IMG/VR virus record: IMGVR_UViG_3300021404_000007
Span: 1 to 64,000 of that record
Source: a virus
Taxonomy: Duplodnaviria > Heunggongvirae > Uroviricota > Caudoviricetes
Length of the DNA: 64,000 nucleotides
Reading direction: 5' to 3' (one strand)
The notes beneath the pieces are model-generated. The model did no database searches, was not told where the DNA came from, and saw only the letters and a list, made by a program, of their open reading frames with translations. Positions 2,582 through 15,930 of the stretch are shown piece after piece. Both the position numbers and the translations under genes were made by a program. Numbering within the stretch: the first letter of the stretch is position 1; each line of letters begins with the position of its first letter.

Positions 2582-2696
2582 GACGTGAAAGGTCAAAAAC
2601 CGGGGTGGTACGAGCGGAAAGCCGCCGACCAGAGAACGCATGACCCCGACGGAAGCGTGGAGCTGGCAGAGCGCCGGTTCCCAAGGAAAAAAGGAG

Positions 2697-3158
2697 ATGG
2701 CAGTGAATGGAAAGAAGAAGTTGATCGTCGGAGGCGTGGTTGCCGGCGGTCTGATGATTGGAGCGGCTGGTCTGGTGCTCGGTGCAGGCATAGCGAAGGC
2801 CGACTTTCACCAGGACGTGCAGTTCATGGAGCTGCTGGACCAGCGCGGCATCGCGCTGACGAACAACAACACGTCATGGGGAACCGGCGTCTGCAACGGG
2901 CTGGACGAAGGGTTCACGCCCAAGCAGGAGGTTGACGCCGTGAGCACCAACTCGATGCTGACCACCAGCGATGCCATTTGGTTCGTGGTCAGCGCCGAGC
3001 ACGTGTACTGCTACCGACACTTCGGCCAGGACTACTTCACCAGCCAGCCGCTGATGCACGCGCCGAGGTTCGTGCCGCCGCCAGTGACGCAGGTGCCCAA
3101 CGACGGCATCGACCACGACACCGTGGTCAGCTACGACGGCAAGGGACACCGGAAATGA
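2697..3158 (+). CDS. DUF732-like membrane/secreted protein (N-terminal TM, conserved Cys pair)
   Basis: Preceded by GGCAGAGCGCCGG (2664-2676) and AAGGAGATGGCA. The protein resembles mycobacterial DUF732 proteins. Confidence 0.6.
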   Translation: MAVNGKKKLIVGGVVAGGLMIGAAGLVLGAGIAKADFHQDVQFMELLDQRGIALTNNNTSWGTGVCNGLDEGFTPKQEVDAVSTNSMLTTSDAIWFVVSAEHVYCYRHFGQDYFTSQPLMHAPRFVPPPVTQVPNDGIDHDTVVSYDGKGHRK

Positions 3159-3271
3159 GCCTGACCGTGTGGCTGGAGATCATCGCGGGCGTCGTGGTGT
3201 TCGGTGGCGCCGAGTACTTCGGGCAGTCGGCACTGGAACGCATCGACGCCGAGCGACACCGCAACGACTAG
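3155..3271 (+). CDS. small membrane protein (38 aa)
   Basis: ATGA overlap with the upstream stop; one hydrophobic helix. Confidence 0.4.
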   Translation: MSLTVWLEIIAGVVVFGGAEYFGQSALERIDAERHRND

Positions 3272-3281
3272 CGGTTGAGTG

Positions 3282-3310
3282 TGAGGGCCGGAGCATTTTG
3301 CTCCGGCCCT
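3282..3310 (+). terminator. stem-loop GGCCGGAGC-ATTTT-GCTCCGGCC
   Basis: Perfect 9-bp inverted repeat directly after the stop. Confidence 0.45.
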
Positions 3311-3352
3311 TGCGCTGAGCCGTGGCAGGAAGCCGCGACCGAGAAGAAGGAG

Positions 3353-3568
3353 ATGGCAATGAACACGACACAGGTTCAGGTGACCCAGCTGAAGCCGATG
3401 ACCAAGGAGCAGCTGCTCAAGCGGCAGATCAAGCGCATGCGAGCGCAGGAGATCGCGCTGACGCAGACCGGCGAAGGCTTCCGTGCCTCCTGCACGGCGC
3501 GCGTCATCGGTGAGTACCGACGCCTCCTGGAGGTGGAGCAGGCGAAGGCTCGCCGGCAGTCCGCGTAA
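3353..3568 (+). CDS. hypothetical protein (MAMNTTQ...)
   Basis: GGAGATGGCAATG start motif; upstream box GGCAGGAAGCCGCGACC. Confidence 0.55.
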   Translation: MAMNTTQVQVTQLKPMTKEQLLKRQIKRMRAQEIALTQTGEGFRASCTARVIGEYRRLLEVEQAKARRQSA

Positions 3569-3586
3569 CACGCGAAACCTCGCGTG

Positions 3587-3660
3587 CCAGAGCCTTCGGG
3601 CTCTGGGCTTCAACGTGGAATAAAAACCGGCAAAAGGAAAAAGTGAAGGAGAAACCAGTG
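3587..3660 (+). promoter_or_regulatory. Hairpin CCAGAGCC-TTCG-GGCTCTGG followed by an AT-rich island containing TTCAACGTGGAA (reverse complement of TTCCACGTTGAA).
   Basis: An AT-rich intergenic island in a 66% GC genome. The 12-mer is shared with 5831 and 11454. Confidence 0.45.
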
Positions 3661-3789
3661 GAACCAACAGAAACGCCGAGCGCGTGGCAATTGAAGTACC
3701 GAATCGAAAGCGCGCAGGAGCAAGTGGACGCAGGCGCGAAGGTCGAGGAGCGCCTGGTGGAGCTGCGCCGATTGGCTGGCGTGCGATGA
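3658..3789 (+). CDS. small hypothetical protein (43 aa)
   Basis: SD AAGGAG followed by GTG; the stop overlaps the next ATG. Confidence 0.3.
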   Translation: MEPTETPSAWQLKYRIESAQEQVDAGAKVEERLVELRRLAGVR

Positions 3790-4013
3790 GAAAGCTGACC
3801 GGAGCGCAGAAGCGCGTGATCGACAACGACGACGTGGCGTGGGTCGGCTGGGACGCGAAGAACCGGCCGGTGGTGAACGCCTACTACTTCGCCGGGTTCC
3901 TGCAACCGCGCGCGAAGGACCGGCGCAACGCTGAAGCGAAGCTGAAGACCTGGGCGATCAAGAAAGACGGTGACCCCACCGAAGTGTCAGAGCCCGTGAC
4001 GGGCATCGAGTGA
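3786..4013 (+). CDS. hypothetical protein
   Basis: ATGA overlap; 76-aa ORF. Confidence 0.5.
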   Translation: MRKLTGAQKRVIDNDDVAWVGWDAKNRPVVNAYYFAGFLQPRAKDRRNAEAKLKTWAIKKDGDPTEVSEPVTGIE

Positions 4014-4024
4014 AGGAGAAGGAA

Positions 4025-4366
4025 GTGGCAGATATCTATAGCGAGCCATACGGCGAGCCATACGTGAAAGGTCCGTCCATCGACAGCGAAGGCGGACAGG
4101 AATACCAGCGGGTTCACCCGGACGTGGCGAAGGCGCTGCGCGACCGGTTCGACGGCGGCTCAGCCTCGGTGTGGCACCCGGACAAACCGGGCGTGATCCT
4201 GAGCGACATCGAGAACTGGTGGGACGGACCACGCGAGGTGAAATACCTGGGCGACGGCGAGATGGAGTTCACCAACCCGTACAACGGCGACGTGGACAGG
4301 TTCAACCTGACCGGCTACTACGACCGCGAAGGCAACTTCACGGTGCGAGGCACAGAGCAGTACTGA
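4025..4366 (+). CDS. hypothetical protein (alternative GTG start at 4010)
   Basis: SD AAGGAG 6 nt before the GTG at 4025; the ORF frame is 4010..4366. Confidence 0.55.
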   Translation: MADIYSEPYGEPYVKGPSIDSEGGQEYQRVHPDVAKALRDRFDGGSASVWHPDKPGVILSDIENWWDGPREVKYLGDGEMEFTNPYNGDVDRFNLTGYYDREGNFTVRGTEQY

Positions 4367-4404
4367 CGGCAGAACGCCGCCAGAACGAGTGAGAGGAGAT
4401 TCCG

Positions 4405-4608
4405 ATGAAGCCGAAGAGAGCCCAGGTGGAGGAGGCACTCGCCACCGAGATTCGCAACGGCGACGTGGGCCGATGCTACGGGCTTGCACTCGCGCTGGCC
4501 ATCTTGGTGGATTCCAGCACCGACGAGGAGCTGTGGCGCGTCGCCGAGGCGAATGGCCTGATGGACGTGGCCGTCCCGATGTTCAAGTGGACCGTCGGGA
4601 GATCGTGA
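4405..4608 (+). CDS. hypothetical protein
   Basis: Preceded by GGCAGAACGCCGC (4369) and SD GAGAGGAG. Confidence 0.55.
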   Translation: MKPKRAQVEEALATEIRNGDVGRCYGLALALAILVDSSTDEELWRVAEANGLMDVAVPMFKWTVGRS

Positions 4609-4682
4609 CTGCAGGTTCGCCGACGGGTGGCACGTCGGCGTTCCTGTGGCCACGGCAGGAAGCCGTGACCGATGAGAAAGGG

Positions 4683-4853
4683 ATGGCAGATATGTGTAGT
4701 TGGGATTGCCCGAAATGCGGGGCGTGCGACCCGGATGTTGAGACGTTAACGACGCCGGGATTTACCGGAGCACCGATATACGTCATGAACTATTCGTGCT
4801 GCGGATATCAGGACGTGGACGCGAGCGCCGACAACATCGACGCGGCGCGATAA
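4683..4853 (+). CDS. small Cys-rich zinc-ribbon protein
   Basis: GGGATGGCAGATATG start motif; CPKCGAC...CCGY. Confidence 0.5.
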   Translation: MADMCSWDCPKCGACDPDVETLTTPGFTGAPIYVMNYSCCGYQDVDASADNIDAAR

Positions 4854-4938
4854 CCGAAATCAAAACCGGAAAAAACCTCTGGAAGGTCACCGAGCCCGGT
4901 CGTTAAGTCCCGACCGGATTTGAAGGAAAGGAAAGTCA

Positions 4939-5442
4939 ATGGATGATGCGCGCGATTATCAGATGGATCCCAGCCCGCCGGACGAACCGGAATGGATGGA
5001 GATTCCCGAAGTCCTGTTCAGCGAGCTGCTGGCAGCTTGCGATCCGGTTCCGCAGGTCATAACGGCCGAGCGGCGCAAACAGTTGGAGCGGCAGAAGGAT
5101 GCGGTGACCGACGTGAACCGCAGCCTGCTGGTGGCAATGGTCGAGTACTTCGACGGAGCAGACCTGTTCTGCGATCACGCCGTGGGCATCTGCTCATGCG
5201 TGGCGATTGCCGTGCATGAGGAGCTGAAGATGTTCCTCCAAGGGATGCTGACCTGCCGAGCGTGTAGCGGCGAAGGCATCACGTGGGACGAGGACAAGTT
5301 CAAGGTCGAGATCGCCAAGATTGCCGCGGCCGATGGAATCACCGAGGCCCAGGCGCGCGACATGTGCGGCGACGGTCCGGGGTTCGTCCAGTGCGAGACG
5401 TGCGGCGGCAACGGCGTCGTGCGCGTGAAGAAGGAGGGGTAA
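4939..5442 (+). CDS. hypothetical protein with DnaJ-type CxxCxGxG zinc-finger repeats (CRACSGEG, CETCGGNG)
   Basis: 167-aa ORF with an SD. The motif spelling matches the DnaJ central Cys-rich domain. Confidence 0.55.
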   Translation: MDDARDYQMDPSPPDEPEWMEIPEVLFSELLAACDPVPQVITAERRKQLERQKDAVTDVNRSLLVAMVEYFDGADLFCDHAVGICSCVAIAVHEELKMFLQGMLTCRACSGEGITWDEDKFKVEIAKIAAADGITEAQARDMCGDGPGFVQCETCGGNGVVRVKKEG

Positions 5443-5720
5443 TGCAGGCACTCAACCTCGTGGCCGGACTGCTTCTCATTGGCGTTGGGCTCACGGTCGC
5501 GTTCTTCCCGGTGTACTGGCTCGTGGTCAATCGACCCAAACCACCTCCGGCACCGCCACGTCCGATTGAGATCGTGAAGCTGCCGCCAGACTTCTGGTTG
5601 CCGGAAAAGCGCGCGGCACGGATGGAGCGGTACGCCCGCGAGGAGCGTGAGCAGCGGCGGCGTAACCGCGTCTACTCCAACGGTCGCATTGGCGTTCTTT
5701 TCTGGATGTTCCGGCGATGA
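5442..5720 (+). CDS. membrane protein (1 TM, Pro-rich, basic C-terminus)
   Basis: TAATG overlap with the upstream gene. Confidence 0.5.
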   Translation: MQALNLVAGLLLIGVGLTVAFFPVYWLVVNRPKPPPAPPRPIEIVKLPPDFWLPEKRAARMERYAREEREQRRRNRVYSNGRIGVLFWMFRR

Positions 5721-5809
5721 AGGAGTCATGCCACCACGTCTACCGCGTGGAGCGCCGGTGGTACGGACCGGTCTTGGTCTGCGTGCGGTGTGAAAAGGAG
5801 CGGCCATGA
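5717..5809 (+). CDS. tiny Cys/His zinc-ribbon-like peptide (30 aa)
   Basis: ATGA overlap; CHH...CVRC. Confidence 0.25.
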   Translation: MKESCHHVYRVERRWYGPVLVCVRCEKERP

Positions 5810-5906
5810 AGCTTGAGTGAAGCTTCAATTCCACGTTGAAATTAAAATTCAAAATTCAAAATTGAAGCTTTTTTTGTTCACAATTCAAACGCGAAAGGAA
5901 ATAGAG
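5810..5906 (+). promoter_or_regulatory. AT-rich island: hairpin AAGCTTCAATT...AATTGAAGCTT plus T7 (terminator-like) enclosing TTCCACGTTGAA and AATTCAAA direct repeats.
   Basis: Read directly from the sequence. Confidence 0.45.
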
Positions 5907-6179
5907 ATGGCAAAGAACATGCAGCGTATTGAGGACAGCGTTGACGACGAGGGTTACGTCGTGCACGGATACAGCCGGTGGGACTGCGAGAAGTGCGGAC
6001 AGGAAGTCCGGCGCTATCGCGGTTCCTACGACGCGAGCTGTGACTGTGGAGCGCAGTACAACGCGAGCGGTCAGCGTTTGCGCGATGACTGGCGCGAAAA
6101 CCCGAGCTGGGACGACGAGAACATCGGCGACCTCGAAGGCGATGAGATCGCCGCGCTGCGCAGAGCGGGTGAGCTGTGA
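5907..6179 (+). CDS. zinc-ribbon protein (CEKCGQE...CDCG)
   Basis: SD GGAAATAGAG; 90 aa. Confidence 0.55.
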   Translation: MAKNMQRIEDSVDDEGYVVHGYSRWDCEKCGQEVRRYRGSYDASCDCGAQYNASGQRLRDDWRENPSWDDENIGDLEGDEIAALRRAGEL

Positions 6180-6180
6180 C

Positions 6181-6348
6181 ATGCCGATCTTCAAGGAGGG
6201 CCAAATCGTCCAGTTCGGCAACATGCTGTTTCGCGTGGTTGGACCGGAGTGGAAGTCGCGCATGGATGGCAGGTGGGGAGTGATCCTGACCGACGAGCAC
6301 CGATCTTTCCGCGCGCCGGTCGCCAAGGTCAGCGCGGTGCAGAACTAG
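6181..6348 (+). CDS. hypothetical protein (55 aa)
   Basis: Start 2 nt after the upstream stop. Confidence 0.45.
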   Translation: MPIFKEGQIVQFGNMLFRVVGPEWKSRMDGRWGVILTDEHRSFRAPVAKVSAVQN

Positions 6349-6359
6349 CGTGAAGGACC

Positions 6360-7052
6360 ATGCGTGCGATGACGAAGGGACTGCTCGACTACTGGCTCAA
6401 GCCCGGACTTCGGACCGGCGAGGTGCTGTACGACTTATCCTGGCGTGGCTCAGGTCCGATGAACGGACAGCCGAGCAAGCGGCTGGTAGTCGAGCAGATC
6501 TTCGACAGGATCGGGCCGACGCAGATTGTGGAGACGGGCACCAACCGTGGGCTCACCACGGCGTACCTCGCGGGCTTCCCGGTTCGGGTGCACACCATCG
6601 AGCTGGACGAGCGGCTGTACGGCTACTCCACCATGCGGCTGCGTCACCACCACAACGTCACGCTGCACCTGGGCCGAAGCGTGGAGGTGCTGCGCGAGCT
6701 GAAGACGGAACCGCGGGTGCTGTTCTACCTCGACGCGCACGGCGATGCCGGGAACATGTGGGACAGCGTGGAGGTGCCGCTGCACGAGGAGCTGGTGGAG
6801 ATCTTCAGCCGCTGGCCCTCGCCGGTGGTTCTGGTGGACGACTTTCAGGTCCCGGGCGACAGCTACAGCTATCTCGACCGTGGACCGGGTCGGCGGCTCA
6901 CCCCGGAGATTCTCGGGGAGTTCGAGGGTCTGTCGCGCTGGTATCCCTCGGCGCCCGCCTATACGGAGCCGGGGATGAATACCGGCTGGATGGTCATGGG
7001 AAGCGACCACTCTGCGGTCCTGGACGGGATACACGGGCTGCGACGCGGGTAA
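6360..7052 (+). CDS. class I SAM-dependent methyltransferase (O-methyltransferase-like; motif I VETGTNRG, post-II FYLDAHGD)
   Basis: 230-aa ORF; the motif spacing resembles the caffeoyl-CoA O-MT / Methyltransf_24 family. Confidence 0.6.
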   Translation: MRAMTKGLLDYWLKPGLRTGEVLYDLSWRGSGPMNGQPSKRLVVEQIFDRIGPTQIVETGTNRGLTTAYLAGFPVRVHTIELDERLYGYSTMRLRHHHNVTLHLGRSVEVLRELKTEPRVLFYLDAHGDAGNMWDSVEVPLHEELVEIFSRWPSPVVLVDDFQVPGDSYSYLDRGPGRRLTPEILGEFEGLSRWYPSAPAYTEPGMNTGWMVMGSDHSAVLDGIHGLRRG

Positions 7053-7060
7053 GAGCGTGG

Positions 7061-7095
7061 TGCGAATACGCACAGCGCGCTGTGGTATAATGGTG
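7061..7095 (+). promoter_or_regulatory. promoter-operator module: 12-bp palindrome ACAGCGCGCTGT fused to an extended -10 TGTGGTATAAT
   Basis: Perfect palindrome 7072-7083 and TGGTATAAT 7083-7091. Related modules are at 12859, 15898, 37690 and 48925. Confidence 0.55.
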
Positions 7096-7161
7096 GCAGG
7101 CCCAACCATGCCCTGAAGCAGGTTGGGCCGAAGCTATGGCAGAACGCCGTAACGGAAGGAG

Positions 7162-7377
7162 ATGGCAATGGGAGGCGTAGTAGCGCGCGACCCGAACGGC
7201 AACAAGCTGGCCGAGCAGGACTATATCGAGGGCGGCTTTGAGCCCACGATGCTGGCCCTGAAGGCGAAGCTGGACGAGGCCAACGGCTGCGACAACCGCT
7301 TGATGCAAGGCGATGGACACGGTGGACCGATCCTGACGGGAGTCGCCGAGGTCGTCGGCCGGTGGGCGTTCCAGTGA
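7162..7377 (+). CDS. hypothetical protein (MAMGGVVARD...)
   Basis: GGCAGAACGCCGT box plus GGAGATGGCAATG. Confidence 0.55.
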   Translation: MAMGGVVARDPNGNKLAEQDYIEGGFEPTMLALKAKLDEANGCDNRLMQGDGHGGPILTGVAEVVGRWAFQ

Positions 7378-7553
7378 CGGACTACGACTGGCACAGCTGC
7401 CCGAAGTGCGGTGGTATCTGGCGGCTCAGCCCGTCGGGACCGCACCAGGAGTGGAGCTATGCGGATTCGGTGCGCGACGCCATGCGCCACGAGCCACGGG
7501 TGTGCATCGACTGCACGCTCAAGGAGCAGGGCGGGCCGTACGGCCCGATGTAG
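7374..7553 (+). CDS. zinc-ribbon protein (CPKCGG...CIDC)
   Basis: GTGA overlap. Confidence 0.5.
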   Translation: MTDYDWHSCPKCGGIWRLSPSGPHQEWSYADSVRDAMRHEPRVCIDCTLKEQGGPYGPM

Positions 7554-7591
7554 ACCACCCGGCAGAGCGCCGGTGGGGAAAGGAGTACGCG

Positions 7592-8443
7592 ATGAAGAGC
7601 ATGTGGACTGGGATGCTGGGATTCGGAATCGTGCAGATTCCGGTGAAGCTGTTCACGGCCACCGAGAACCATGATGTGGGGTTCCACTGGCACCACGGGC
7701 CGAAGTGCCTGGGGAATGTGGGTCTGGTCAAAACCTGCAAGAAGTGCCTGAAGCCGGTGGACCCCGGCGACATCCTCTCGGGCACCGAGGTGGACGGCAA
7801 GGTGGTGTTCGTCAGCGACGAGGAGAAGGCCAGCCTGGAAGCCGCGCAATCCAAGCAGATCGAGATTCTGGAGTTCGTGGGCGCGGGCGAGATCGATCCC
7901 ATCGAGTTTGAGAACACCTACTACGTGGGCACGGCCGAGGGCGAGAAGGCGTATGCGCTGCTGGCGCAGAGCATGGGCGGACTGACGGCGCTGGCCCGCT
8001 TCACCATGCGCGGCAAGACGCGGCGGGCCGCGCTGCGCGCCGTGGTCCGCGACGACCGGCTGGTGCTGATCCTGCACACGCTGCGCTGGCCGGACGAGGT
8101 TCGGGTGCCGGAGGTGCCGGGTCTGGGCGGCGATTACAGTGCGGCCGAGCTGAGGATGGCCAAGAAGGTTGTGCAGTCGATGGTGGAGAAGTACGACCCG
8201 AACGCCCTGGTGGACACCTACCAGGAACGGCTGCAGGAGCTGGTTGCGGCCAAGGCCGAGGGCGCCGAGTTCGTGGTAGAGCCCGCAGTGGAGTTGGACG
8301 CCAGTGACGTCAAGGACGTGCTGGCGCAGCTTGAGGCGTCAATCAGGGCGCATCCGGCTGGCAGGAAGAAGGTGGCCGCGAAGGCACCGGCTAAGAAAGC
8401 ACCGGCGAAGGCGCCGGTCAAGAGAAGGAAGGCAGTGGCATGA
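7592..8443 (+). CDS. ku: Ku (non-homologous end-joining DNA-end-binding protein) with a Lys/Ala-rich C-terminal tail
   Basis: The N-terminus MKSMWTGMLGFGIVQIPVKLFTATE matches the bacterial Ku signature (MRAIWKG.ISFGLV.IPVK...ATE). There is an internal CxxC pair and a KAPAKKAPAKAPVKRRK tail. It is preceded by GGCAGAGCGCCGG plus SD. Confidence 0.85.
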   Translation: MKSMWTGMLGFGIVQIPVKLFTATENHDVGFHWHHGPKCLGNVGLVKTCKKCLKPVDPGDILSGTEVDGKVVFVSDEEKASLEAAQSKQIEILEFVGAGEIDPIEFENTYYVGTAEGEKAYALLAQSMGGLTALARFTMRGKTRRAALRAVVRDDRLVLILHTLRWPDEVRVPEVPGLGGDYSAAELRMAKKVVQSMVEKYDPNALVDTYQERLQELVAAKAEGAEFVVEPAVELDASDVKDVLAQLEASIRAHPAGRKKVAAKAPAKKAPAKAPVKRRKAVA

Positions 8444-8592
8444 CCGTAGAGGAGATGGCAACCCGGTACGAGAGCCTGCGCCGTGCGGCGTCTGAGGCGA
8501 TCAGCGAGTTGCGGCGCTGGCAGGACGCCGACGACCCGGCCGACGTGAGCCATTCGATCGACAGCGCGATCCACATATTGGAGCGGGCGTGA
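8440..8592 (+). CDS. hypothetical protein (50 aa)
   Basis: ATGA overlap with Ku; GTGA overlap with the next gene. Confidence 0.4.
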   Translation: MTVEEMATRYESLRRAASEAISELRRWQDADDPADVSHSIDSAIHILERA

Positions 8593-8954
8593 GCACCCGG
8601 CGCGACCCGGCGGTGAAGACCGGGAAGTACCGGGGGTCGTGGGCGGTCTTCGAGGAGAACGCCCCGGTGGTCACCGGCCTCAGCCGCGACGAGGCCCGCT
8701 ACCACCGCAACCAGGTCATCAACCGGCGTGCGGAGGAGGCCCGGAAGCGGGTGGCCACCTGCGAGTACGAGTGGATCCGCAAGTGGGGTCGAATGCTGGG
8801 GTCGTATCAGTACTACATCGACGACCAGATCGCGCTGGCGCGCAGGGAACAGGCGCCGGCGAATGCCGTGCACAAGAACCAGGACGGCAGGTGGGTGACG
8901 ACGGACGAGATCACCAACGTGGAAGCACGGTTCGCGCTGGGGCTGCCGCTATGA
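8589..8954 (+). CDS. hypothetical protein
   Basis: 121-aa ORF, GTG start. Confidence 0.5.
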   Translation: MSTRRDPAVKTGKYRGSWAVFEENAPVVTGLSRDEARYHRNQVINRRAEEARKRVATCEYEWIRKWGRMLGSYQYYIDDQIALARREQAPANAVHKNQDGRWVTTDEITNVEARFALGLPL

Positions 8955-9145
8955 AGGACTGGCTGATGCAGAACTGGTTCGTCGGTTGGGTCGCGCTGGC
9001 GCTGTCGCCGATCTGGGTTGAGCTGCTGCGGCTGGGCGTGGTCCGGCTGTGGCGGGCGCGGGCCGTCCGGCGTAGGCGGCGGCTGCCGACCTGGGCGGAG
9101 CTGGAGCAGTTGCGCCGGGAGATGAATGCGCGTGGGTGGTTCTGA
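8951..9145 (+). CDS. membrane protein (64 aa)
   Basis: ATGA overlap; a TM helix and Arg-rich region. Confidence 0.45.
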   Translation: MKDWLMQNWFVGWVALALSPIWVELLRLGVVRLWRARAVRRRRRLPTWAELEQLRREMNARGWF

Positions 9146-9354
9146 TGATGGCCGACCGCCGCCGCGAGTTCAGCGGCACCAGCTCCACCGGCAGTCGTCA
9201 CGGGCTGCTGGCCGAGGAGAACAAGGAAGGCTTCCGGTTCACCGTAACCGGGGTCAACGGCAAGCGTCATGCCACAGTCAAGCTCAGCCGCGATGACGCG
9301 GCGGCACTGAGCGATTGGATTAGGAGAAGCAATGATGGACCTGGCAGAGCGTGA
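9145..9354 (+). CDS. hypothetical protein
   Basis: TGATG overlap. Confidence 0.4.
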   Translation: MMADRRREFSGTSSTGSRHGLLAEENKEGFRFTVTGVNGKRHATVKLSRDDAAALSDWIRRSNDGPGRA

Positions 9355-9526
9355 CCCACTGAAGGCGAAGCTGGCGGACAGGGTGCATGAGTTGGTGCGC
9401 AGTCTCGCAGTCGACGGCTTCGATGTTCAAGTGCTGCGGGCGGACAACCTGTGCACGCAGGTCAAGGTCAGGGGCGCGCAGGGACCGCCGCGCTGGTTCA
9501 CCGTGAAGCTGTCGGAGAACTACTGA
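9332..9526 (+). CDS. hypothetical protein
   Basis: SD AGGAGAAGCA followed by ATG. Confidence 0.5.
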   Translation: MMDLAERDPLKAKLADRVHELVRSLAVDGFDVQVLRADNLCTQVKVRGAQGPPRWFTVKLSENY

Positions 9527-9705
9527 TGGACGAGAACATCCTCGGCGTCAGCCAGCTATGGGCCGTCAGCTACCGCAAGCGTGAGGGTGGCCGGGCGACC
9601 AAGACGTTTGCCAACGAGGGTGAGGCCCGTGATTTCTACGGCTACGCCAGCGATGCAGACGCCGAGCTCTACGCCACACGGGTGTCGTGGGAGCAAGTGG
9701 ATTAA
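9526..9705 (+). CDS. hypothetical protein (59 aa)
   Basis: TGATG overlap. Confidence 0.4.
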   Translation: MDENILGVSQLWAVSYRKREGGRATKTFANEGEARDFYGYASDADAELYATRVSWEQVD

Positions 9706-9748
9706 CCGTGGACCCGGCAGAGCGCCGGTCCTAGAGAGGAGATGGCAA

Positions 9749-10057
9749 ATGACCGAGGTTCCCAAGCTGCTCCCGGAGAACCTACCGAGTAAGACCAAGG
9801 CACAGTTGATCGAGCTGTGCGAGCAGATGGCCCAGGACTGGCTGACGCTGAACGCGATCCACAACGCGCGGGCGGCCCACGCCGAATGGTGCAGCGAGTA
9901 CGAGGAGAGGCAGTACCACTACAACAAGGCGTTCAAGGTGCTGCAGCTGTTCCCTCGTAGTGCCGGGCTGCCGTTGACCGTTCTCGGGTTGTACGACTCA
10001 CGCGGTAACCCGCTGCGGCCAGGACAGTATGTCGGCGCCGCGCAGGCGAGGTTGTGA
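9749..10057 (+). CDS. hypothetical protein
   Basis: GGCAGAGCGCCGG box (9715) plus GAGGAGATGGCAAATG. The in-frame start is the second ATG. Confidence 0.55.
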   Translation: MTEVPKLLPENLPSKTKAQLIELCEQMAQDWLTLNAIHNARAAHAEWCSEYEERQYHYNKAFKVLQLFPRSAGLPLTVLGLYDSRGNPLRPGQYVGAAQARL

Positions 10058-10251
10058 TGGGTGACACGTCCACAGTGGTGGCGAGAATCCCGAACTGCGA
10101 CGTTTGCCGCCAGAGCGGGAAGGAGACGCCCGCCTACGCCGATGCGAAGCTCAACATCGGTCCTTGGGCGTACGTCTGCCGTGCACATTTCGACGGGTAC
10201 GGCTGCAGCCTCGGCCTCGGCCGGGGCCAGGAGTTGAAGCTAAGGAAGTAG
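10057..10251 (+). CDS. zinc-binding protein (CDVC...C...C)
   Basis: TGATG overlap. Confidence 0.5.
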   Translation: MGDTSTVVARIPNCDVCRQSGKETPAYADAKLNIGPWAYVCRAHFDGYGCSLGLGRGQELKLRK

Positions 10252-10281
10252 CCGCGGCACGGTGCCGCGACAAGGAAAGGG

Positions 10282-10677
10282 ATGGCAATGCCGAAGAAAG
10301 TACAGCCGACAGACCCGGCCACGAAGCCGACGGTGACGCTGCTGGCAACGATGCTGACAGAGCGGATGGCCGGTGACGAGATGAAGCTGGCGATCATTCA
10401 TGAAGTGGATCGCGGCCTCATGCAGGCGCAGGCCAGCGCGCTGATCTCGTATCTGGCCACGTTCAACCTGACGCCGGAGGCGGAGAAGGCGCGGGAGAAC
10501 GACGACCCGGTGACCGAGCCCGGCTTCTACAAGCACGAGGGCAAGGAGTACGAGGTGGTCACGGCGGATGCCGGACACCTGTACCCGGTGGACGTGGAGA
10601 CCGGACGATTCGCCAAGGGGTTGTTTCCCCGGCTGCGCGCCAGCGAGCGGGTGGCCCGGCTCAAGGTGGTGGGTTGA
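10282..10677 (+). CDS. hypothetical protein (MAMPKK...)
   Basis: GGGATGGCAATG start motif. Confidence 0.55.
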   Translation: MAMPKKVQPTDPATKPTVTLLATMLTERMAGDEMKLAIIHEVDRGLMQAQASALISYLATFNLTPEAEKARENDDPVTEPGFYKHEGKEYEVVTADAGHLYPVDVETGRFAKGLFPRLRASERVARLKVVG

Positions 10678-10856
10678 TGCCCGGCGTGCTGTACGAGGTG
10701 CCGGGGGAACGTGAGTTGCTGCTGGCCAAGATCGCGCGCGAGGAGCACCGACAGGAAGGCCGGCGCGACTTCATCGTGGAGATCCAGCGGTTCATCGACA
10801 CCAAGGACCGCGAGATCGCGAACCTGCGGGCCAGGTTGGAGCAGTTGGATGGCTGA
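10677..10856 (+). CDS. hypothetical coiled-coil protein
   Basis: TGATG overlap. Confidence 0.45.
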   Translation: MPGVLYEVPGERELLLAKIAREEHRQEGRRDFIVEIQRFIDTKDREIANLRARLEQLDG

Positions 10857-11214
10857 GCATCGCAAGGCATTCGACCTCGCGGTGGCCAGCGTGATCGTGA
10901 TCAACACCGGGCTGCTGGCGTGGGCGTGGCTGGACCCGGCACGCGAGGAGATCATCGACCACATCGAAACGGTGTGCCTGGCGTTCTTCGTGGTCGAGCT
11001 GGCGCTGCGGATACGCGGCCACGGGCTGCGGTTCTTCCGCACCGGATGGGGCGTGGCCGACACGCTCATCATCGGGCTGTCGTTGCTGCCGCTGCTGGGC
11101 GTCGATGTCTCGCTGCTGCGCGTGGCGCGACTGGCGCGGGTGTTCCATCTTGGCCGACACATCACGCACCTACGCCTGCTGCGTCTGATTCCGATGACAA
11201 GGAGGTCTGTATGA
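10849..11214 (+). CDS. isolated voltage-sensor-domain-like membrane protein (ion_trans S1-S4; S4 = LRVARLARVFHLGRHITHLRLLRL)
   Basis: Four predicted TM segments. The S2-like AFFVVELALRIRG, S3-like GWGVADTLIIGLSLLPLLG and an Arg-every-third-residue S4 are present, with no pore domain. Confidence 0.5.
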   Translation: MAEHRKAFDLAVASVIVINTGLLAWAWLDPAREEIIDHIETVCLAFFVVELALRIRGHGLRFFRTGWGVADTLIIGLSLLPLLGVDVSLLRVARLARVFHLGRHITHLRLLRLIPMTRRSV

Positions 11215-11447
11215 AAGCTGAGTTGATGTCGCGCACCTGCCAAATCATGTACCTGGCAGCCGCGCTGGCGAACCTGGTGCTGTTCTTCTATTTCCATGGA
11301 GACGGCAACAACATCGCCATCGCCGTGCTGCTCGGGGTGCTCATCATGAACCAGCGGGTGGTCGACCTCTGGCGCGGCGCATCCTTCGAGTGGCGAGCAG
11401 CCGCTGAGGCGTGGCGTCACGCAGCCGAGCGGACGGGGAGAGGGTGA
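11211..11447 (+). CDS. membrane protein (78 aa, 2 TM)
   Basis: ATGA overlap. Confidence 0.5.
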   Translation: MKAELMSRTCQIMYLAAALANLVLFFYFHGDGNNIAIAVLLGVLIMNQRVVDLWRGASFEWRAAAEAWRHAAERTGRG

Positions 11448-11506
11448 AAATTCCACGTTGAAACGCAAAATCCGGAAAATCTTGAAAATTTTTGAAGGTG
11501 GGCGAA
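11448..11506 (+). promoter_or_regulatory. AT-rich island with TTCCACGTTGAA and TTGAAA repeats
   Basis: Same 12-mer as at 5831 and (inverted) 3609. Confidence 0.45.
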
Positions 11507-11668
11507 ATGAAGTATCCAACGCCATGTGACGCCTGTGGAGCGCTGGTGGGTGAAGCGTGCCGCGAAGGCTGTCCGATCGCGCAGGTGCAAACGTCGCTCG
11601 ACGTAGACATGGGATCGGCAGAGCGCCGACCCAGTGAAGGGAGAAGTCACAATGGGATGGTTTGTTGA
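11507..11668 (+). CDS. small Cys-rich protein (53 aa)
   Basis: ATG after the AT-rich island; low-confidence start. Confidence 0.3.
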   Translation: MKYPTPCDACGALVGEACREGCPIAQVQTSLDVDMGSAERRPSEGRSHNGMVC

Positions 11669-11683
11669 GCCGGAGGTTGGCGT

Positions 11684-11998
11684 ATGAACGTCGACATCAT
11701 TCCGGAAGCGTTTTTGTGGTGCCGCGACGTGATGCACGCCTGGGACCCGTACACGGCGCGCGTGGCGCTCAACAAGGCTTCGCGTAGGCGCGAGATGCAC
11801 CAGGTGCTCATCTGCACGCGGTGCGGCACGCTCAAGACGCGGGTGATGACCCTGCAGGGCGAGACGTTGCGGAACAGCTACAGCTACCCGGACGGCTATC
11901 TGCAGAACGAGCAGGGTGCAATGACACCGGCAGACCGGGCGATGATCCGGCGTATCAACCTCAGAAAAGCCACCATCGTCGAGGCTGACAACGCATGA
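11684..11998 (+). CDS. hypothetical protein with a C-terminal CxxC
   Basis: GGCAGAGCGCCGA box at 11616; SD GGAGG. Confidence 0.5.
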   Translation: MNVDIIPEAFLWCRDVMHAWDPYTARVALNKASRRREMHQVLICTRCGTLKTRVMTLQGETLRNSYSYPDGYLQNEQGAMTPADRAMIRRINLRKATIVEADNA

Positions 11999-12345
11999 GA
12001 ATCAGCGCGAAGCCGGGTGAGGTGACGGTCGATATCGACGATCCGGTCCAGGCCGCCACTCTCATCAACGCCATATTGCACGGCGGCAAGAAGCAGAAGG
12101 CGCTGCCAGCGCCGAAGCCGAAGGTGCTGGCGCCGGCCGATGTCACCCTCACCAAGCAGATGCTGGAAACGTGGCAATGGCTGGTGGCGCACGACAGTGA
12201 GGGCGGCGTGACGTCTGCGCAGGTCGCAGCCGGGCTCAAACTCAACCAGTCGGCGGCAACGTGGCGGCTGAAGGAGTTGGTCGGAAAGGGCGTCGTCTAC
12301 CGGCTCAGCCGCGGCTACTACCGGCCCGGGGAGCGTGGTGACTGA
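11995..12345 (+). CDS. winged-helix DNA-binding protein (C-terminal MarR/ArsR-like wHTH)
   Basis: ATGA overlap; VTSAQVAAGLKLNQSAATWRLKELVGKGVVYRL. Confidence 0.5.
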   Translation: MRISAKPGEVTVDIDDPVQAATLINAILHGGKKQKALPAPKPKVLAPADVTLTKQMLETWQWLVAHDSEGGVTSAQVAAGLKLNQSAATWRLKELVGKGVVYRLSRGYYRPGERGD

Positions 12346-12620
12346 TGCACGGCGACGATTTGATCGAGGTCCAGCTCAAACAGCCGCACATGCAGATCAC
12401 GTTCCGGGTGGTGCGGGAAGACGGGTCCGCGTACGACGTTTACGCCGAATCGACGTCGATACGCGGCGCGCAGCGCGAGATCACCGGGAAGCTCATCAAA
12501 GACGGCTACCAGCCGCTCGGGCGATGGGACGGAACGGTGCGCAGATACCGGCGCCCGCTGGCCGGTCGAATCAAGGCAGCTGCGGCAGACGCCGTGGCTC
12601 ACGAAAGGAATGGGAAATGA
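12345..12620 (+). CDS. hypothetical protein
   Basis: TGATG overlap. Confidence 0.45.
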   Translation: MHGDDLIEVQLKQPHMQITFRVVREDGSAYDVYAESTSIRGAQREITGKLIKDGYQPLGRWDGTVRRYRRPLAGRIKAAAADAVAHERNGK

Positions 12621-12859
12621 CCGAACTGGACAGTGACGACGTGGCCAGCGCCTTCGAGAACGCTTTTGAGGCTATGGACCTGGGCCACCTGACGGCTATC
12701 GACGCTCTGACGCAGATCGCAACGGACATCGCCGGTGGCATCCCGGACGCGGCCGAGCGGCGCGCGTTCTTGGAGGCCTGCAACCTGCGTCGCGCCGAGG
12801 TGGACAAGGCCATGGACGCCATCTGCGCGGACATTATGGACTACACCCAAGGAACCTAA
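12617..12859 (+). CDS. hypothetical acidic protein
   Basis: ATGA overlap. Confidence 0.45.
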   Translation: MTELDSDDVASAFENAFEAMDLGHLTAIDALTQIATDIAGGIPDAAERRAFLEACNLRRAEVDKAMDAICADIMDYTQGT

Positions 12860-12880
12860 CAGCGCGCTGTGGTATAATTA
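12859..12880 (+). promoter_or_regulatory. palindrome ACAGCGCGCTGT plus TGGTATAAT promoter-operator module
   Basis: Same element as at 7072. Confidence 0.5.
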
Positions 12881-12932
12881 GGTAGCGGCGCAGCGCCGTG
12901 ACCAGGCAGAACGCCGGGAGAGGGAGATAGCA

Positions 12933-13115
12933 GTGGCTGACGATGAGAAGACCGCGTTGGACTTGGGCGCGATTGTGCGTGATCTCAAGACCGATTTCAA
13001 CGGCGATGTGCACGATGTCGAGTTGAGCTGGGGCACCAGCGACGGCAGATACGTCTGCCGCCAGCAGGGTGACAAATGGTCGTCGTTCTTCATACCCAAG
13101 GCGGCGACGAACTGA
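12933..13115 (+). CDS. hypothetical protein (60 aa)
   Basis: GGCAGAACGCCGG box plus GAGGGAGATAGCAGTG. Confidence 0.5.
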   Translation: MADDEKTALDLGAIVRDLKTDFNGDVHDVELSWGTSDGRYVCRQQGDKWSSFFIPKAATN

Positions 13116-13342
13116 TGTGGGACAGCTACGGCGAATACGTCGGCTGGCAGAACAGCGTGGCGCTGGCGAACGCCGGTAATGACTACGGGCCGCAGTTTGG
13201 TCCGGCCAATCCGCGCAGCTTCTACTACGAGCCGCAGCTGCTGGGCTGCGGCCACACCTCCGAGGACTGCGATGGCGTCGAATGTGGGCGGATCGTGCAG
13301 GAGCCGCCCGACCTGGACTACTGGCTTGGCCAGAACCCCTAG
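13115..13342 (+). CDS. hypothetical protein
   Basis: TGATG overlap. Confidence 0.45.
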   Translation: MWDSYGEYVGWQNSVALANAGNDYGPQFGPANPRSFYYEPQLLGCGHTSEDCDGVECGRIVQEPPDLDYWLGQNP

Positions 13343-13348
13343 ACCGGA

Positions 13349-13460
13349 CGCGCCCGTGCTCCCTGCCACGGCGCGGGCGCGTCCTCAAACCACCCCTCCG
13401 GCCCATCCCCCGGAGGGGTGTTTAGCGCCGGGGCGTCGATGAGAGAGGAAGCTCGTCGGC
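13349..13460 (+). terminator. three consecutive GC-rich hairpins
   Basis: GACGCGCCCG...CGGGCGCGTC; CCCCTCCGG...CCGGAGGGG followed by TGTTT; CCGGGGCG...CGCCCCGG. Confidence 0.5.
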
Positions 13461-13496
13461 GCCCCGGTGTATCAACCGAAAAAACGGAAGGAAATC

Positions 13497-13784
13497 ATGC
13501 CAAATGGATTAACGGCGACCGCCCCGATGGCGGTGCGCATCAGAATCAACGTGGCGCTGCGCAAGATGCCGTATAGCGGATTGCTGCCGTCGCCACCGCG
13601 CGGCGACGCGCTGCCGGACACCAGGGACGGCGATTCGGCCTATTACGAGTCGGTGGCCGAGTGGCTGGAAAGGCTGGCCGCGAAGCAGACCGAACACGTC
13701 GACAAGCACGAGGCCACCCGCAGCGAGCTGCTGGCGATGCGGACCCAGCGCGACGTGATCCGCGAGTTCCTGGGCACGAAATGA
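13497..13784 (+). CDS. hypothetical protein
   Basis: SD GGAAGGA. Confidence 0.5.
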   Translation: MPNGLTATAPMAVRIRINVALRKMPYSGLLPSPPRGDALPDTRDGDSAYYESVAEWLERLAAKQTEHVDKHEATRSELLAMRTQRDVIREFLGTK

Positions 13785-14185
13785 GCCCCGGCTACACCGC
13801 GGTGGTCATCCACCTGCCGAATAACGACGGCGTGGTGGAGATAGAGCGGATCACGGTCCCGGACGGTGATTTCGCCGGCCTGGGCTTCCTGCAGAAGATG
13901 GTCGGCGGCTACATCGAGCATGTGGCCAGCGCCGACGGCAGCCTCGACTTCTATTTGAATGAAGAAGGCAAGCTGCCGCCGAACAACCTGCCCATCAACA
14001 ACGTCGCCACTGATCTGCTGTGGGTCGTCAATCCGGCGTTTCGGGGCGTGGACGTCCTGGTGGGCAACGTCGTGCTCACGGGCCATGAAGGGCCGGAGAC
14101 GGCCAGCATCCCGGACGGGTGGTGGGAGCTACTGCAGCAGCAGAAGTGGCAGGTACCAGTGAAGTTCATCGAGGAGGGTAAATGA
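13781..14185 (+). CDS. hypothetical protein
   Basis: ATGA overlap; 134 aa. Confidence 0.5.
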   Translation: MSPGYTAVVIHLPNNDGVVEIERITVPDGDFAGLGFLQKMVGGYIEHVASADGSLDFYLNEEGKLPPNNLPINNVATDLLWVVNPAFRGVDVLVGNVVLTGHEGPETASIPDGWWELLQQQKWQVPVKFIEEGK

Positions 14186-14880
14186 CCGAACCGGAGTTCG
14201 ATCTCATCGAGTACGCGAAGGAGAAGGCGCGCGACAACGCCGAGTCGCTGGATGGGCCGGAGGACGACATCCTGCCGATCATGTTGTGGGTCGGCCCGCA
14301 TGGCATCGGGTTGATGCCGATGCACGAAGGCCTGCGGAACGAGCGCACCAAAGAGGCCATAGCGCAGGTGATGACGGCGACGCTGGCCGTCAGCCGCGCC
14401 ACGGCGGTGGTGATGACCACCACGGCGTGGATGGTGGTGGCACCAAGAGTGGAGGTCGGCGACCCGTTTAAGGACGTCAAGTTCCCGCTCAGCGAGAACC
14501 CGGATCGTACCGAGCATGTGGTGCTGATGTGCGTGAAGGAAGGAAAGGACATTCTCACCTCGGCGCCCGTGACCCGCTATCCGGACCGGCCGCCCACGCT
14601 GGGCGAGTGGGACAGCACGCCGCTGGGCACCAAAGACGGTGACAGCGCCAGGATGGGCGGGCGATTCGGCGACGCCATGCACCTGGGCATCGACTTCGCC
14701 AACAACATGCCGCCGGAGCTGATCGAGATTATCGAGGAGGGCTGGCAGGACGGCACGCAGGACGACCTGATCGGGCGGTTTTTGAAGGTGTACGCGGAAA
14801 CGAGGGGGATGCCGCAGACGCCCGCGGGCGTCATGGTCGTCGAGTTCCCGAAGGGTGACCCCAGCGGCTCAGGGGGGTAA
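14182..14880 (+). CDS. hypothetical protein (232 aa)
   Basis: ATGA overlap. Confidence 0.55.
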   Translation: MTEPEFDLIEYAKEKARDNAESLDGPEDDILPIMLWVGPHGIGLMPMHEGLRNERTKEAIAQVMTATLAVSRATAVVMTTTAWMVVAPRVEVGDPFKDVKFPLSENPDRTEHVVLMCVKEGKDILTSAPVTRYPDRPPTLGEWDSTPLGTKDGDSARMGGRFGDAMHLGIDFANNMPPELIEIIEEGWQDGTQDDLIGRFLKVYAETRGMPQTPAGVMVVEFPKGDPSGSGG

Positions 14881-14923
14881 ATCCGAGATTGGTCAGAGGC
14901 CCAAGCAAGAAGGAGGAAAACAG

Positions 14924-15094
14924 GTGAGCAGATTGAGGTGGCTGTGGCACAGGTACGTGCTGAAGCACGAAGTCGAACGGAAGGGAGCGATCCTGCCGGA
15001 CCGGCGCATCGGCGGCATCAACGTGTACGAGCAGGAGGTCTTCCGGGTGCCGATGGCGCACTGGGAGTGCTCCTGCGGCGAGACGTGGTTCTGA
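14924..15094 (+). CDS. hypothetical protein (C-terminal CSCG)
   Basis: SD AAGGAGGA followed by GTG. Confidence 0.45.
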   Translation: MSRLRWLWHRYVLKHEVERKGAILPDRRIGGINVYEQEVFRVPMAHWECSCGETWF

Positions 15095-15476: not shown

Positions 15477-15487
15477 GGAGGTGAAAC

Positions 15488-15876: not shown

Positions 15877-15894
15877 TAACGCCACCCCCCTGCG

Positions 15895-15930
15895 AACGTG
15901 GTAGCGCGCTGTTATATAATGGTAGTTGCG
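15895..15930 (+). promoter_or_regulatory. GTAGCGCGCT palindrome plus TGTTATATAAT extended -10
   Basis: Variant of the promoter-operator module. Confidence 0.45.

Follow-up and report, generated by a model that had tools for sequence, protein, structure and literature searches.

The window analyzed here, positions 1 to 64,000 of the IMG/VR virus record IMGVR_UViG_3300021404_000007 (Caudoviricetes), is part of a metagenome contig of about 101 kb (ENA ERZ27253674, k141_3123496), about 37 kb of which lie outside it. It encodes Ku, RecE/RecT, a replication initiator, a WhiB-like regulator, several HNH endonucleases, a DUF732 protein, a 7-deazaguanine pathway and mycobacteriophage-like minor tail proteins, and, judging by this gene content, the host probably belongs to the Mycobacteriales. 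The lineage of the phage is uncultured; megablast found no nucleotide relatives among GenBank phages, and protein searches returned only 31-38% identity to the Ku and tail proteins of Mycobacterium or Gordonia phages. Five related contigs, designated below by L numbers, were reached through Ku homologues that are 84, 67, 60, 55 and 54% identical; the relatives derive from ERZ27236665, ERZ27236670, ERZ27237620, SRR29078197 and JGI 3300036828. Genes of the window are our own calls, made with a caller based on GC content at third codon positions and corrected at five genes adjacent to hairpins or promoters (four of these preceded by a hairpin), and the gene calls of the relatives were taken from the source database. 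Here we describe a family of small hairpins that precede approximately 20 early or non-structural cistrons of this phage, and whose apex had been noticed, in a preliminary description of the sequence, as a short box upstream of genes.

The box is a genuine repeat, as that description had claimed. The sequence GGCAGARCGCCG has 10 exact matches in the 64 kb, as compared with 0.02 expected from dinucleotide shuffles. The matches begin at 2665, 4368, 7138, 7561, 9716, 11617, 12905 and 49237 on the + strand and occupy 30130-30141 and 48891-48902 on the − strand, and every one is intergenic and co-directional with the downstream gene. The coordinates first reported were correct to within 1-2 nt, except for the − strand position 30119, which was off by about 11 nt. 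Four copies that had been listed as degenerate are true hairpin variants with other loops (2083, AAGGA; 3324, AGGAA; 4654, AGGAA; 10256, ACGGT). The family is not limited to the span of 2664 to 12935, as copies reach 49.2 kb, and what had been taken for a linear motif of 13-17 bp with a partial dyad is actually the apex of a full stem-loop with a covarying lower stem.

The box consists of the loop (A-G-A-G-C/A) and the invariant stem top (CGGC/GCCG) of this small stem-loop. The sequences flanking the box are different in each copy, yet mutually complementary, as in CGCGC-GGC-AGAGC-GCC-GCGCG at 49237 and GGAC(C)C-GGC…GCC-G-GTCC at 9716. All 10 exact copies adopt the same minimum-free-energy fold, with a stem of 8-10 bp, a loop of 5 nt and a predicted stability of -9 to -21 kcal/mol (-9 to -22 kcal/mol across copies of the family). 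From 5' to 3', the hairpin is composed of a variable lower stem of 2-4 bp, usually one mismatch or bulge, an upper stem of 5-6 bp ending in CGGC/GCCG, and the pentaloop A-G-A-G-C/A; the arms measure 8-9 nt and the loop is 5 nt, rarely 6 nt. It is followed by 3-10 purine-rich nt, the Shine-Dalgarno (SD) sequence, often as GGAG-ATGGCA, and the start codon.

In an ungapped alignment of the 10 exact copies, 84% of the stem cells were paired, as compared with 28-43% when the 3' partner was slid, and the covariation score exceeded that of all 500 shuffles. A larger set, to which the window and four relatives contributed 47 copies, gave 87.5% paired cells, as compared with 25-42% when slid, and contained 71 double-sided changes, as compared with 30 ± 4 in the shuffles, none of which (0/500) reached 71. 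As a guard against circularity, sites were also selected by position only, namely every intergenic GGC-N5-GCC, in the window or in four relatives, that has a start on the same strand no more than 45 nt downstream. The flanks of these 46 sites paired at 3.9 of 5 positions, against 2.1 of 5 in 264 other sites (Mann-Whitney p = 9e-18), and the loop began with A in 43 of the 46, against 22% elsewhere. The modal flank pairing was 4 of 5 because one mismatched pair (C.A, A.C or A.A) or one bulged base recurs 5-6 pairs below the loop. These compensatory changes show that a folded single strand is under selection.

The consensus of 49 copies has A at the first loop position in 48, G at the second in 28, A at the third in 34, G at the fourth in 33, and C (24 copies) or A (16 copies) at the fifth; the closing pair adjoining the GGC/GCC core is C-G in 41 of 49. 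A covariance model of the hairpin alone (R1) recovered the 10 exact copies at 26-35 bits, together with a graded tail of intergenic copies with the loops AAAGC, ACGGT, AGGAA and AGGGA. With a broader model (R2), we found 17 sites in the window at 20 bits or more, all of them intergenic and co-oriented with the downstream gene; no site at this score lay inside a gene or antisense in the window, save for weak echoes of near-palindromic copies. In total, the window holds 19 clear and two marginal copies, from 2.0 to 49.3 kb.

The location of the hairpin is related to the downstream gene. The distance from the end of the core to the start codon has a median of 23 nt (interquartile range 21-26, range 16-37, n = 43), and the hairpin sits 3-10 nt 5' of the SD sequence, whereas its distance to the upstream stop codon ranges from 1 to more than 200 nt. 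Since the distance is variable to the upstream stop and fixed to the start, the hairpin belongs to the downstream gene. Every copy is aligned with its downstream gene, including both copies in the − strand blocks, and the locking of the box to start codons that had been proposed is thus borne out, in intergenic positions oriented with the gene and far above chance. Window scans found no copies in the tail/lysis block at 52-64 kb. About half of the gaps of at least 38 nt (26 of 54) carry the hairpin, and three more carry a version with a 6-nt loop. We also considered the idea that every gap has some hairpin, which proved false: gaps without a family hairpin are no more structured than coding controls. 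It is thus the specific CGGC-A…GCCG hairpin that recurs, and not hairpins generally.

A second element, the 10-mer GGAGATGGCA, is found at the ribosome-binding site (RBS). It has seven exact copies on the + strand and none on the − strand, as compared with 0.17 expected per strand, and 25 copies when up to one mismatch is allowed, as compared with 5.5 expected. The exact copies lie at 2108-2117, 2693, 3349, 7158, 8451, 9738 and 37767 on the + strand, near-copies lie at 5903 and 12923, and GGGATGGCA was found downstream of the hairpins at 4654 and 10256. All seven exact copies are at gene starts, and five of the seven are within 45 nt downstream of a family hairpin. The start codon comes directly after the 10-mer at four copies, 1 nt later at 9738 and 3 nt later at 37767, and no start follows the copy at 8451. 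GGAGATGGCA is the SD sequence GGAG plus a conserved 6-nt spacer, rather than an obligatory coding sequence. At 9738, the ATG contained in it is not in the reading frame of the gene, and at position 550 of the relative L125 it reads ATG GCA TGA, that is, a stop codon comes after the embedded ATG. A few genes have no possible start other than the embedded ATG (5907 in the window; the Ku gene of L124, with the N-terminus MAKSMWTG). The MAM or MAV N-termini that had been suggested for the downstream proteins do not hold for the most part: GGAG-ATGGCA represents the SD sequence with its spacer, and most genes start at the next codon. The 10-mer recurs in L122, L124, L125 and L126 before unrelated genes, usually but not always after a hairpin.

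We found seven predicted extended -10 promoters in the window, of the form TGNTAYAAT or GGTAYAWT (6 found as compared with 1.2 expected; 5 found as compared with 0.25 expected). They comprise TGGTATAAT at 12870-12878 (+), those at 7083-7091, 31923-31931, 37713-37721 and 48935-48943 on the + strand, and those at 30153-30160 and 48916-48923 on the − strand. A family hairpin lies at most 50 nt downstream of six of the seven. At four promoters, it begins at, or adjacent to, the predicted transcript start, about 3-6 nt past the -10 hexamer (12879/12897 and 31937 on the + strand, 30149 and 48910 on the − strand), and at the two remaining hairpin-bearing promoters another stem-loop occupies the 5' end, with the family hairpin after it. 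A stable stem-loop begins about 3-8 nt past the -10 hexamer at all six hairpin-bearing promoters, where the transcript starts are predicted ones; internal copies would need processing to come to a 5' end. The seventh promoter, at 48935 (+), drives a gene for a small helix-turn-helix (HTH) protein, and the hairpin at 49237 follows the stop codon of that gene. The promoters within 48916-48943 stand back to back, 12 bp apart, and diverge to drive an open reading frame (ORF) for a zinc-ribbon-like protein of 52 amino acids (48711-48869, −) and the HTH protein of 82 amino acids (48978-49226, +), an arrangement that resembles the layout of a genetic switch.

The individual leader hairpins, on the + strand unless stated, are as follows. 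The first, at 2075-2102 (loop AAGGA; 21.6 bits with R2, by sequence and fold), is followed by GGAGATGGCA at 2108-2117 and a start at 2118. The copy at 2657-2684 (AGAGC; -15.8 kcal/mol) has a 9-bp stem with two G.U pairs and precedes the DUF732 gene at 2703-3158, and that at 3316-3343 (AGGAA; 24.1 bits) lies downstream of a terminator-like hairpin with a U-tract at about 3280. An exact GGCAGARCGCCG copy confirmed by its fold, at 4360-4387 (AGAAC), overlaps with its 5' arm the TGA stop of the preceding gene, and the hairpin at 4646-4673 (AGGAA; 26.7 bits) is located ahead of a Cys-rich ORF of 53-56 amino acids. Three further exact copies with the fold follow: 7130-7157 (AGAAC), which is the second hairpin in the transcript from the promoter at 7083-7091; 7553-7580 (AGAGC), directly 5' of the Ku gene at 7592-8443 and with an orthologous hairpin in five of five relatives; and 9708-9735 (AGAGC, with a bulged C), which starts 3 nt past the upstream TAA stop. 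The copies at 10248-10275 (ACGGT; 27.5 bits) and 11609-11636 (AGAGC, with a bulged A; -15.6 kcal/mol, z -3.0) are succeeded by two tandem hairpins at 12879-12924 (GCAGC and AGAAC), which begin 3 nt past the -10 element at 12870-12878 and hence at the predicted 5' end of a transcript. A marginal family member at 15940-15967 (ATGAC; 15.9 bits) and the copies at 20078-20105 (ATGGT; 20.1 bits) and 21339-21366 (AGGGA; 25.6 bits) come next. On the − strand, the hairpin at 30122-30149 (AGAGC; z -3.3) lies about 4 nt past the -10 element at 30153-30160 and ahead of an HNH/HTH gene at 29637-30107 (−). The copy at 31934-31961 (AAAGC; 21.3 bits), which has an 8-bp stem with two U.G pairs, lies 6 nt past the -10 element at 31923-31931, and a weak family member at 37731-37758 (AGTAC) is located downstream of the promoter at 37713-37721 and followed by GGAGATGGCA at 37767-37776. 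The other − strand hairpin, at 48883-48910 (AGAGC; an exact copy with the fold), lies about 6 nt past the -10 element at 48916-48923 and is the leader of a leftward operon with ParB and 7-deazaguanine genes. The last, at 49229-49256 (AGAGC; -20.7 kcal/mol, z -4.0), has a perfect 8-bp stem and lies a few nt past the stop of the small HTH gene at 48978-49226.

R1 detects the hairpin in all five related contigs, nearly always on the coding strand and within intergenic gaps, with 28 copies in four of the contigs and three in the fifth. It stands directly upstream of the Ku gene in six of six genomes (Ku 54-100% identical), where the lower stems differ and the layout is kept. The loops show a preference by genome: AGAGC or AGAAC in the window, ACAGC in L123, AGACA, AGACG or AGATG in L124, and AGAGN in L125. 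The genome-specific bases are C at loop position 2 in L123 (p = 0.002), C or T at position 4 in L124 (p = 3e-6), and C at position 5 in the window and L122 (p = 1e-4). Outside this group, the distant Ku loci L001-L003 (40% identity) are without the hairpin, and a scan of IMG/VR for the 15-mer core gave single-copy chance matches only. The pattern of hairpin plus GGAGATGGCA had six matches in GTDB genomes, 12 in JGI metagenomes and none in IMG/VR; none of these had multiple hairpins, and the GTDB and JGI matches are at chance level or represent an unrelated conserved gene. No Rfam family reached its gathering threshold across the whole window, and the matches at 2-13.2 kb were at chance level only, with none on the hairpins.

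Short, oriented, intergenic repeats associated with gene starts have been documented in actinophages, namely the start-associated sequence (SAS) and extended start-associated sequence (ESAS) of Cluster K and the motifs of Clusters EF, EC, EG and EI (PMC3203893, PMC7302621), with the Cluster O repeat as a looser parallel (PMC4351075). The function of SAS-type repeats was still untested in 2025 (PMC12699233). The present family is similar to Cluster K SAS/ESAS and the SAS-like motif of Microbacterium Cluster EF in that it is multi-copy, has one orientation, is intergenic and is tied to the starts of non-structural genes (PMC3203893, PMC7302621), the last feature agreeing with the absence of hairpins from the tail/lysis block noted above. 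As in SAS/ESAS, a conserved RBS sequence (here GGAGATGGCA, like SAS) is combined with a dyad just upstream (here the hairpin, like ESAS), and both are kept across related phages before unrelated genes. The resemblance to SAS/ESAS noted previously therefore holds for the two-part layout, but not for membership. The 13-bp Cluster K SAS consensus GGGATAGGAGCCC has no match in the window with up to two mismatches, and SAS occupies the RBS position, 3-7 bp before the start, whereas the hairpin core lies at a median of 23 nt upstream, 5' of the SD sequence; GGAGATGGCA, unlike the hairpin, does occupy the SAS-type RBS position. In ESAS, two imperfect inverted repeats of 17 nt are separated by a spacer of 4-13 bp and stand directly 5' of SAS, whereas the arms here are 8-9 nt long and the loop is 5 nt (rarely 6), although the position upstream of an SD element is similar. 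Departures from the ESAS repeat were reported not to preserve RNA pairing (PMC3203893); the hairpin, unlike ESAS, shows clear compensatory change, as seen above in the 87.5% pairing and the 71 double-sided changes, a number that 0/500 shuffles reached.

Similar comparisons were made with other repeats. The motifs of Microbacterium phages are an 18-bp asymmetric sequence in Cluster EC, an 18-bp inverted repeat in Cluster EG and a 30-bp repeat in Cluster EI (PMC7302621). They resemble the hairpin in being oriented and located in short intergenic gaps, 14-30 bp before the start and 5' of the RBS, in 5-12 copies per genome and with function unknown (PMC7302621). However, the EC motif is not a dyad and the palindromic arms of the EG motif are invariant, whereas only the apex is fixed here and the remainder covaries; the EC, EG and EI motif sequences are absent from the window. 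The 17-bp Cluster O repeat TGTTCGGNNNCCGAACA is likewise a short dyad with tens of copies per genome, often intergenic, in a Ku-encoding phage group, but its arms are invariant, it has no orientation, one third of its copies lie within genes, and it is not linked to starts (PMC4351075). Its authors predicted a dimeric DNA-binding protein for it (PMC4351075), and the motif TGTTCGGNNNCCGAACA is absent from the window. Stoperators of Cluster A (L5) are similar in being about 13 bp long, asymmetric, located in short intergenic regions and oriented with transcription, but they are DNA sites at which the bound immunity repressor blocks elongation, with 13 of 13 positions conserved and no flank complementarity; the consensus GGTGGMTGTCAAG has five scattered matches in the window at 1-2 mismatches, none of them at hairpins. 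The pentaloop of lambda boxB is GNRA-like (GAAAA, GAAGA or GACAA), in contrast to the A-initial loop found here (48 of 49; consensus AGAGC/A), and no boxB-like match was found in the window. Intrinsic terminators need a U-tract, whereas purines make up 87% and T 6% of the 10 nt that follow the hairpins. Repetitive extragenic palindromes (REP) and the bacterial interspersed mosaic elements built from them occur in both orientations, usually 3' of genes, and are associated with a REP-associated tyrosine transposase, whereas the hairpin has one orientation and is locked to the downstream start. In sequence and geometry, the family thus lacks the features that define each published actinophage repeat with which it was compared.

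An RNA-level role is the best reading of these start-associated hairpins. Our preferred hypothesis, held tentatively and with somewhat less than even confidence, is that they are mRNA leader hairpins whose apex is read by a factor affecting ribosome loading and/or mRNA lifetime, and that the promoter-proximal copies also serve as 5'-terminal protective stem-loops. The box would then be the apex of a sense-strand mRNA stem-loop, shared as a leader by about 20 cistrons, and the hairpin would act post-transcriptionally on the downstream gene. A sequence-specific factor, probably phage-encoded, would read the conserved apex and could set ribosome loading and/or mRNA lifetime across the gene set, in a manner that may resemble the T4 RegA regulon or the thrS operator, with a hairpin as the operator. 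Next to a promoter, the hairpin would form the 5'-terminal stem-loop of the transcript and, by analogy, might shield the mRNA from 5'-end-dependent RNases such as RNase E and RNase J. We infer that RNA is the folding strand and that a factor exists, as well as the direction of its effect. The preservation of CGGC/GCCG and of the loop A while the lower stems diverge completely is evidence that something reads the apex, and so are the genome-specific loop preferences; with the invariant apex and these loops, the binding of a phage or host factor suggested in the preliminary description appears plausible. Small stem-loops in mRNA leaders are well known from the T4 RegA regulon, domain 2 of the thrS operator, the coat-protein operators of RNA phages, lambda boxB, the ompA leader and T4 gene 32. 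They act on ribosome access, mRNA decay or polymerase behavior; operator stems often have a defined bulge, and RegA targets are common to many early genes. The present family differs from these hairpin operators and leaders in that there is no match of sequence or loop type, and in that a single hairpin is present in about 20 copies per genome. In a more specific version of the hypothesis, which we consider rather unlikely, the hairpins would be operators of a phage-encoded RNA-binding regulator that evolves together with the loop in every lineage and turns a regulon of about 20 early genes on or off post-transcriptionally, as an actinophage counterpart of T4 RegA with a structured operator. 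A still more speculative extension is that the neighboring (GGCNN)n array, described below, is transcribed and might serve the same factor as a sponge or loading platform.

Several points weigh against this hypothesis. The transcript starts are predictions and not measurements. The counts of G.U and A.C in the stems are alike on the sense strand (about 14 and about 17), so that wobble pairs do not prove that the sense RNA folds, and we dropped their asymmetry as an argument. The invariance of GGC/GCC arises partly by construction, as the family was anchored on the GGC-N5-GCC core, and copies in the same genome are paralogues, which means that the shuffle statistics overstate independence and significance. 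The loop preferences by genome could stem from duplication or gene conversion without any factor, and no RNA-binding protein or RNase was recognized with Pfam and PHROGs among about 60 proteins of the window, beyond which lie about 37 kb of the genome. We also considered insulation of the RBS by the hairpin, and rejected it: the predicted accessibility of the SD sequence and start was 0.62 with the native hairpin and 0.61 with shuffled ones (p = 0.29).

The main rival is a stabilizer independent of any factor, that is, a protective 5'-terminal or intercistronic stem-loop opposing 5'-end-dependent decay (RNase E, RNase J, RppH-type), which would act at a primary 5' end or after intercistronic cleavage and in which the apex would reflect common descent and a stable GC clamp. 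We regard this as possible, although not probable. It accords with the stable stem-loops that begin at about the predicted start of the transcript in all six promoters with a hairpin (the family hairpin itself at four), with the predicted stabilities of -9 to -22 kcal/mol, and with the failure to find a trans factor among the scanned window proteins; furthermore, 5'-terminal stem-loops such as those of the ompA leader and T4 gene 32 are established stabilizers. However, a stabilizer has no need for the invariant CGGC-A...GCCG apex, which is nevertheless present in most stable hairpins of this positional class, nor for the conserved interruption at pair 5-6 or the tight 21-26 nt distance to the start, and it sits poorly with loop preferences that vary by genome. 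A nut/boxB-like site, at which a hairpin in the nascent RNA would bring a phage antiterminator to RNA polymerase for read-through of terminators in long early operons, would suit a short pentaloop hairpin with a copy just downstream of six of seven promoters, and the strong terminators lying within the + strand gene block at 3280 and 13351-13470. Such a role is nonetheless improbable, as at least 13 copies are operon-internal and locked to start codons rather than promoters, the loop is A-initial and not GNRA-like, the E. coli-type boxA is absent from the window (although this may not be the actinobacterial form), and no arginine-rich N-like protein is evident at the N-termini of the promoter-proximal genes.

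A duplex-DNA operator is unlikely as well, and we give it little credence. According to this explanation, a phage protein would bind CGGC-N5-GCCG, as a dimer on the palindrome or in an oriented, stoperator-like fashion, and would silence or block transcription at many intergenic sites. The 13-bp dyad core and the short intergenic regions, oriented with transcription like L5 stoperators (PMC3203893, PMC4351075), would suit it, HTH and WhiB-like regulators are encoded in the window, and Pope et al. favored DNA-binding proteins for ESAS. However, flanks that vary freely yet stay complementary are the signature of a folded single strand and not of protein-DNA contacts. In addition, variation within one genome is greatest at the center of the site, the loop, which is also strongly strand-asymmetric (48 of 49 copies have A at position 1), and the stoperator consensus is absent at the hairpin sites. 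There is some support for the notion that the hairpin and SD region mark cassette boundaries, chiefly as a recombination linker or the scar of a REP-like mobile element at gene-cassette junctions: the same hairpin and GGAGATGGCA occur before unrelated genes in different genomes, the gene order near hairpin-bearing intergenic regions at 4.85-5.9 kb of the window differs from that of the 92-94% identical L122, and two hairpins flank the HNH gene that was inserted in L126. Such a role can coexist with one in expression; that it is the main one, with little effect on expression, has only a slight probability in our judgment, given the single orientation throughout, the tight spacing to the downstream start and the compensatory maintenance of the stem, which indicates selection on structure. 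REP elements, moreover, have both orientations and lie at genes' 3' ends, and no transposase was seen among the scanned window proteins. Finally, the hairpins might be factor-independent terminators or attenuators without a U-tract, like the "I-shaped" terminators proposed for actinobacteria, since they are GC-rich, intergenic and in some cases directly past stop codons. This is very improbable: the sequence that follows them is purine-rich and poor in T, canonical U-tract terminators are used elsewhere in the phage, copies occur immediately past promoters and immediately before the SD sequences of genes that need expression, and they are placed relative to the downstream start and not to the upstream stop.

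Short, oriented repeats of the start-associated class have been catalogued in several clusters of actinophages since 2011 (K, EF, EC, EG and EI), none with a demonstrated function or an agreed level of action, DNA or RNA. In the literature searched, the hairpin family is the first of this class in which compensatory change among both paralogues and orthologues points clearly to a folded single strand, and it constitutes a new, structure-supported variant of the actinophage start-associated repeats. The apex of the structure, its interruption and its distance to the start codon are all defined, and four of the seven predicted promoters have it at, or adjacent to, the 5' end predicted for the transcript. 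A descriptive curiosity thereby becomes a concrete hypothesis that is open to reporter constructs, and the covariance model can be used to search other actinophages for the element. Should a dedicated factor read the hairpin, it would represent a new global post-transcriptional switch for phage early genes and possibly a compact, portable expression element for mycobacterial genetics.

Other features of the window and its relatives were observed in the course of this analysis. A degenerate pentanucleotide array, (GGCNN)n, lies between + strand genes at about 23150-25760 and 25950-26480 (approximately 2.6 and 0.5 kb, + strand). It contains 132 GGC/kb as compared with 15 GCC/kb, and 46 GGCA/kb as compared with 1.2 TGCC/kb, with G at 47%; the spacing from GGC to GGC is 5 nt in 194 cases, and CGGCAG, which it has in common with the 5' half of the hairpin, occurs 34 times. 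A period of 5 nt cannot be coding, and every frame yields low-complexity "ORFs" rich in G, R and A. The segment at 13351-13500 contains three adjacent hairpins that are very strong (-87.5 kcal/mol, z = -6.7); one of them has a U-tract and one a perfect stem of 19 bp, and together they probably form a terminator cluster at an operon boundary inside the + strand gene block. The first 2000 nt of the window have an unusual composition (AT skew 0.32) and several tandem repeats of 12-30 nt, including GGCCAAGGCACC at 932-1014 and CGCTGGCACGCTGGCCGGT at 1291-1374. A very AT-rich intergenic stretch at 5810-5905 with AAATTCAAAATTCAAAATTGAAGC-type repeats is absent in the 92-94% identical L122, which has a family hairpin after the same upstream gene in its place. 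At 4900-4925, a different hairpin (CCGGTCG-TTAAGTCC-CGACCGG) precedes a gene of 167 amino acids starting at 4939, and the L122 orthologue has the family hairpin at this position.

Free-standing HNH genes are numerous: 27719-28105, 29637-30107 (−) and 43790-44227 (−) in the window, 7602-7778 in L123, 4699-5133 in L125 and 1633-2217 in L126, the last being inserted between the usual hairpin and Ku, with a second hairpin on its downstream side. Right after Ku, L124 carries at 9703-16505 host-like genes for an AMP-binding/reductase protein of 1081 amino acids, an MmpL transporter of 947 amino acids and an F420H2-dependent quinone reductase, which phages do not usually carry and which suggest a host of mycobacterial type. 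Genes for 7-deazaguanine DNA modification are located at 43246-47940 (−) and 19431-20117 (+) and encode FolE, QueE-like and QueD-like proteins and a DpdA-like transglycosylase, with a QueC-like protein elsewhere; a glycosyltransferase and a ParB-like protein are present alongside this set. Judging from these genes, the phage DNA is probably hypermodified at G.

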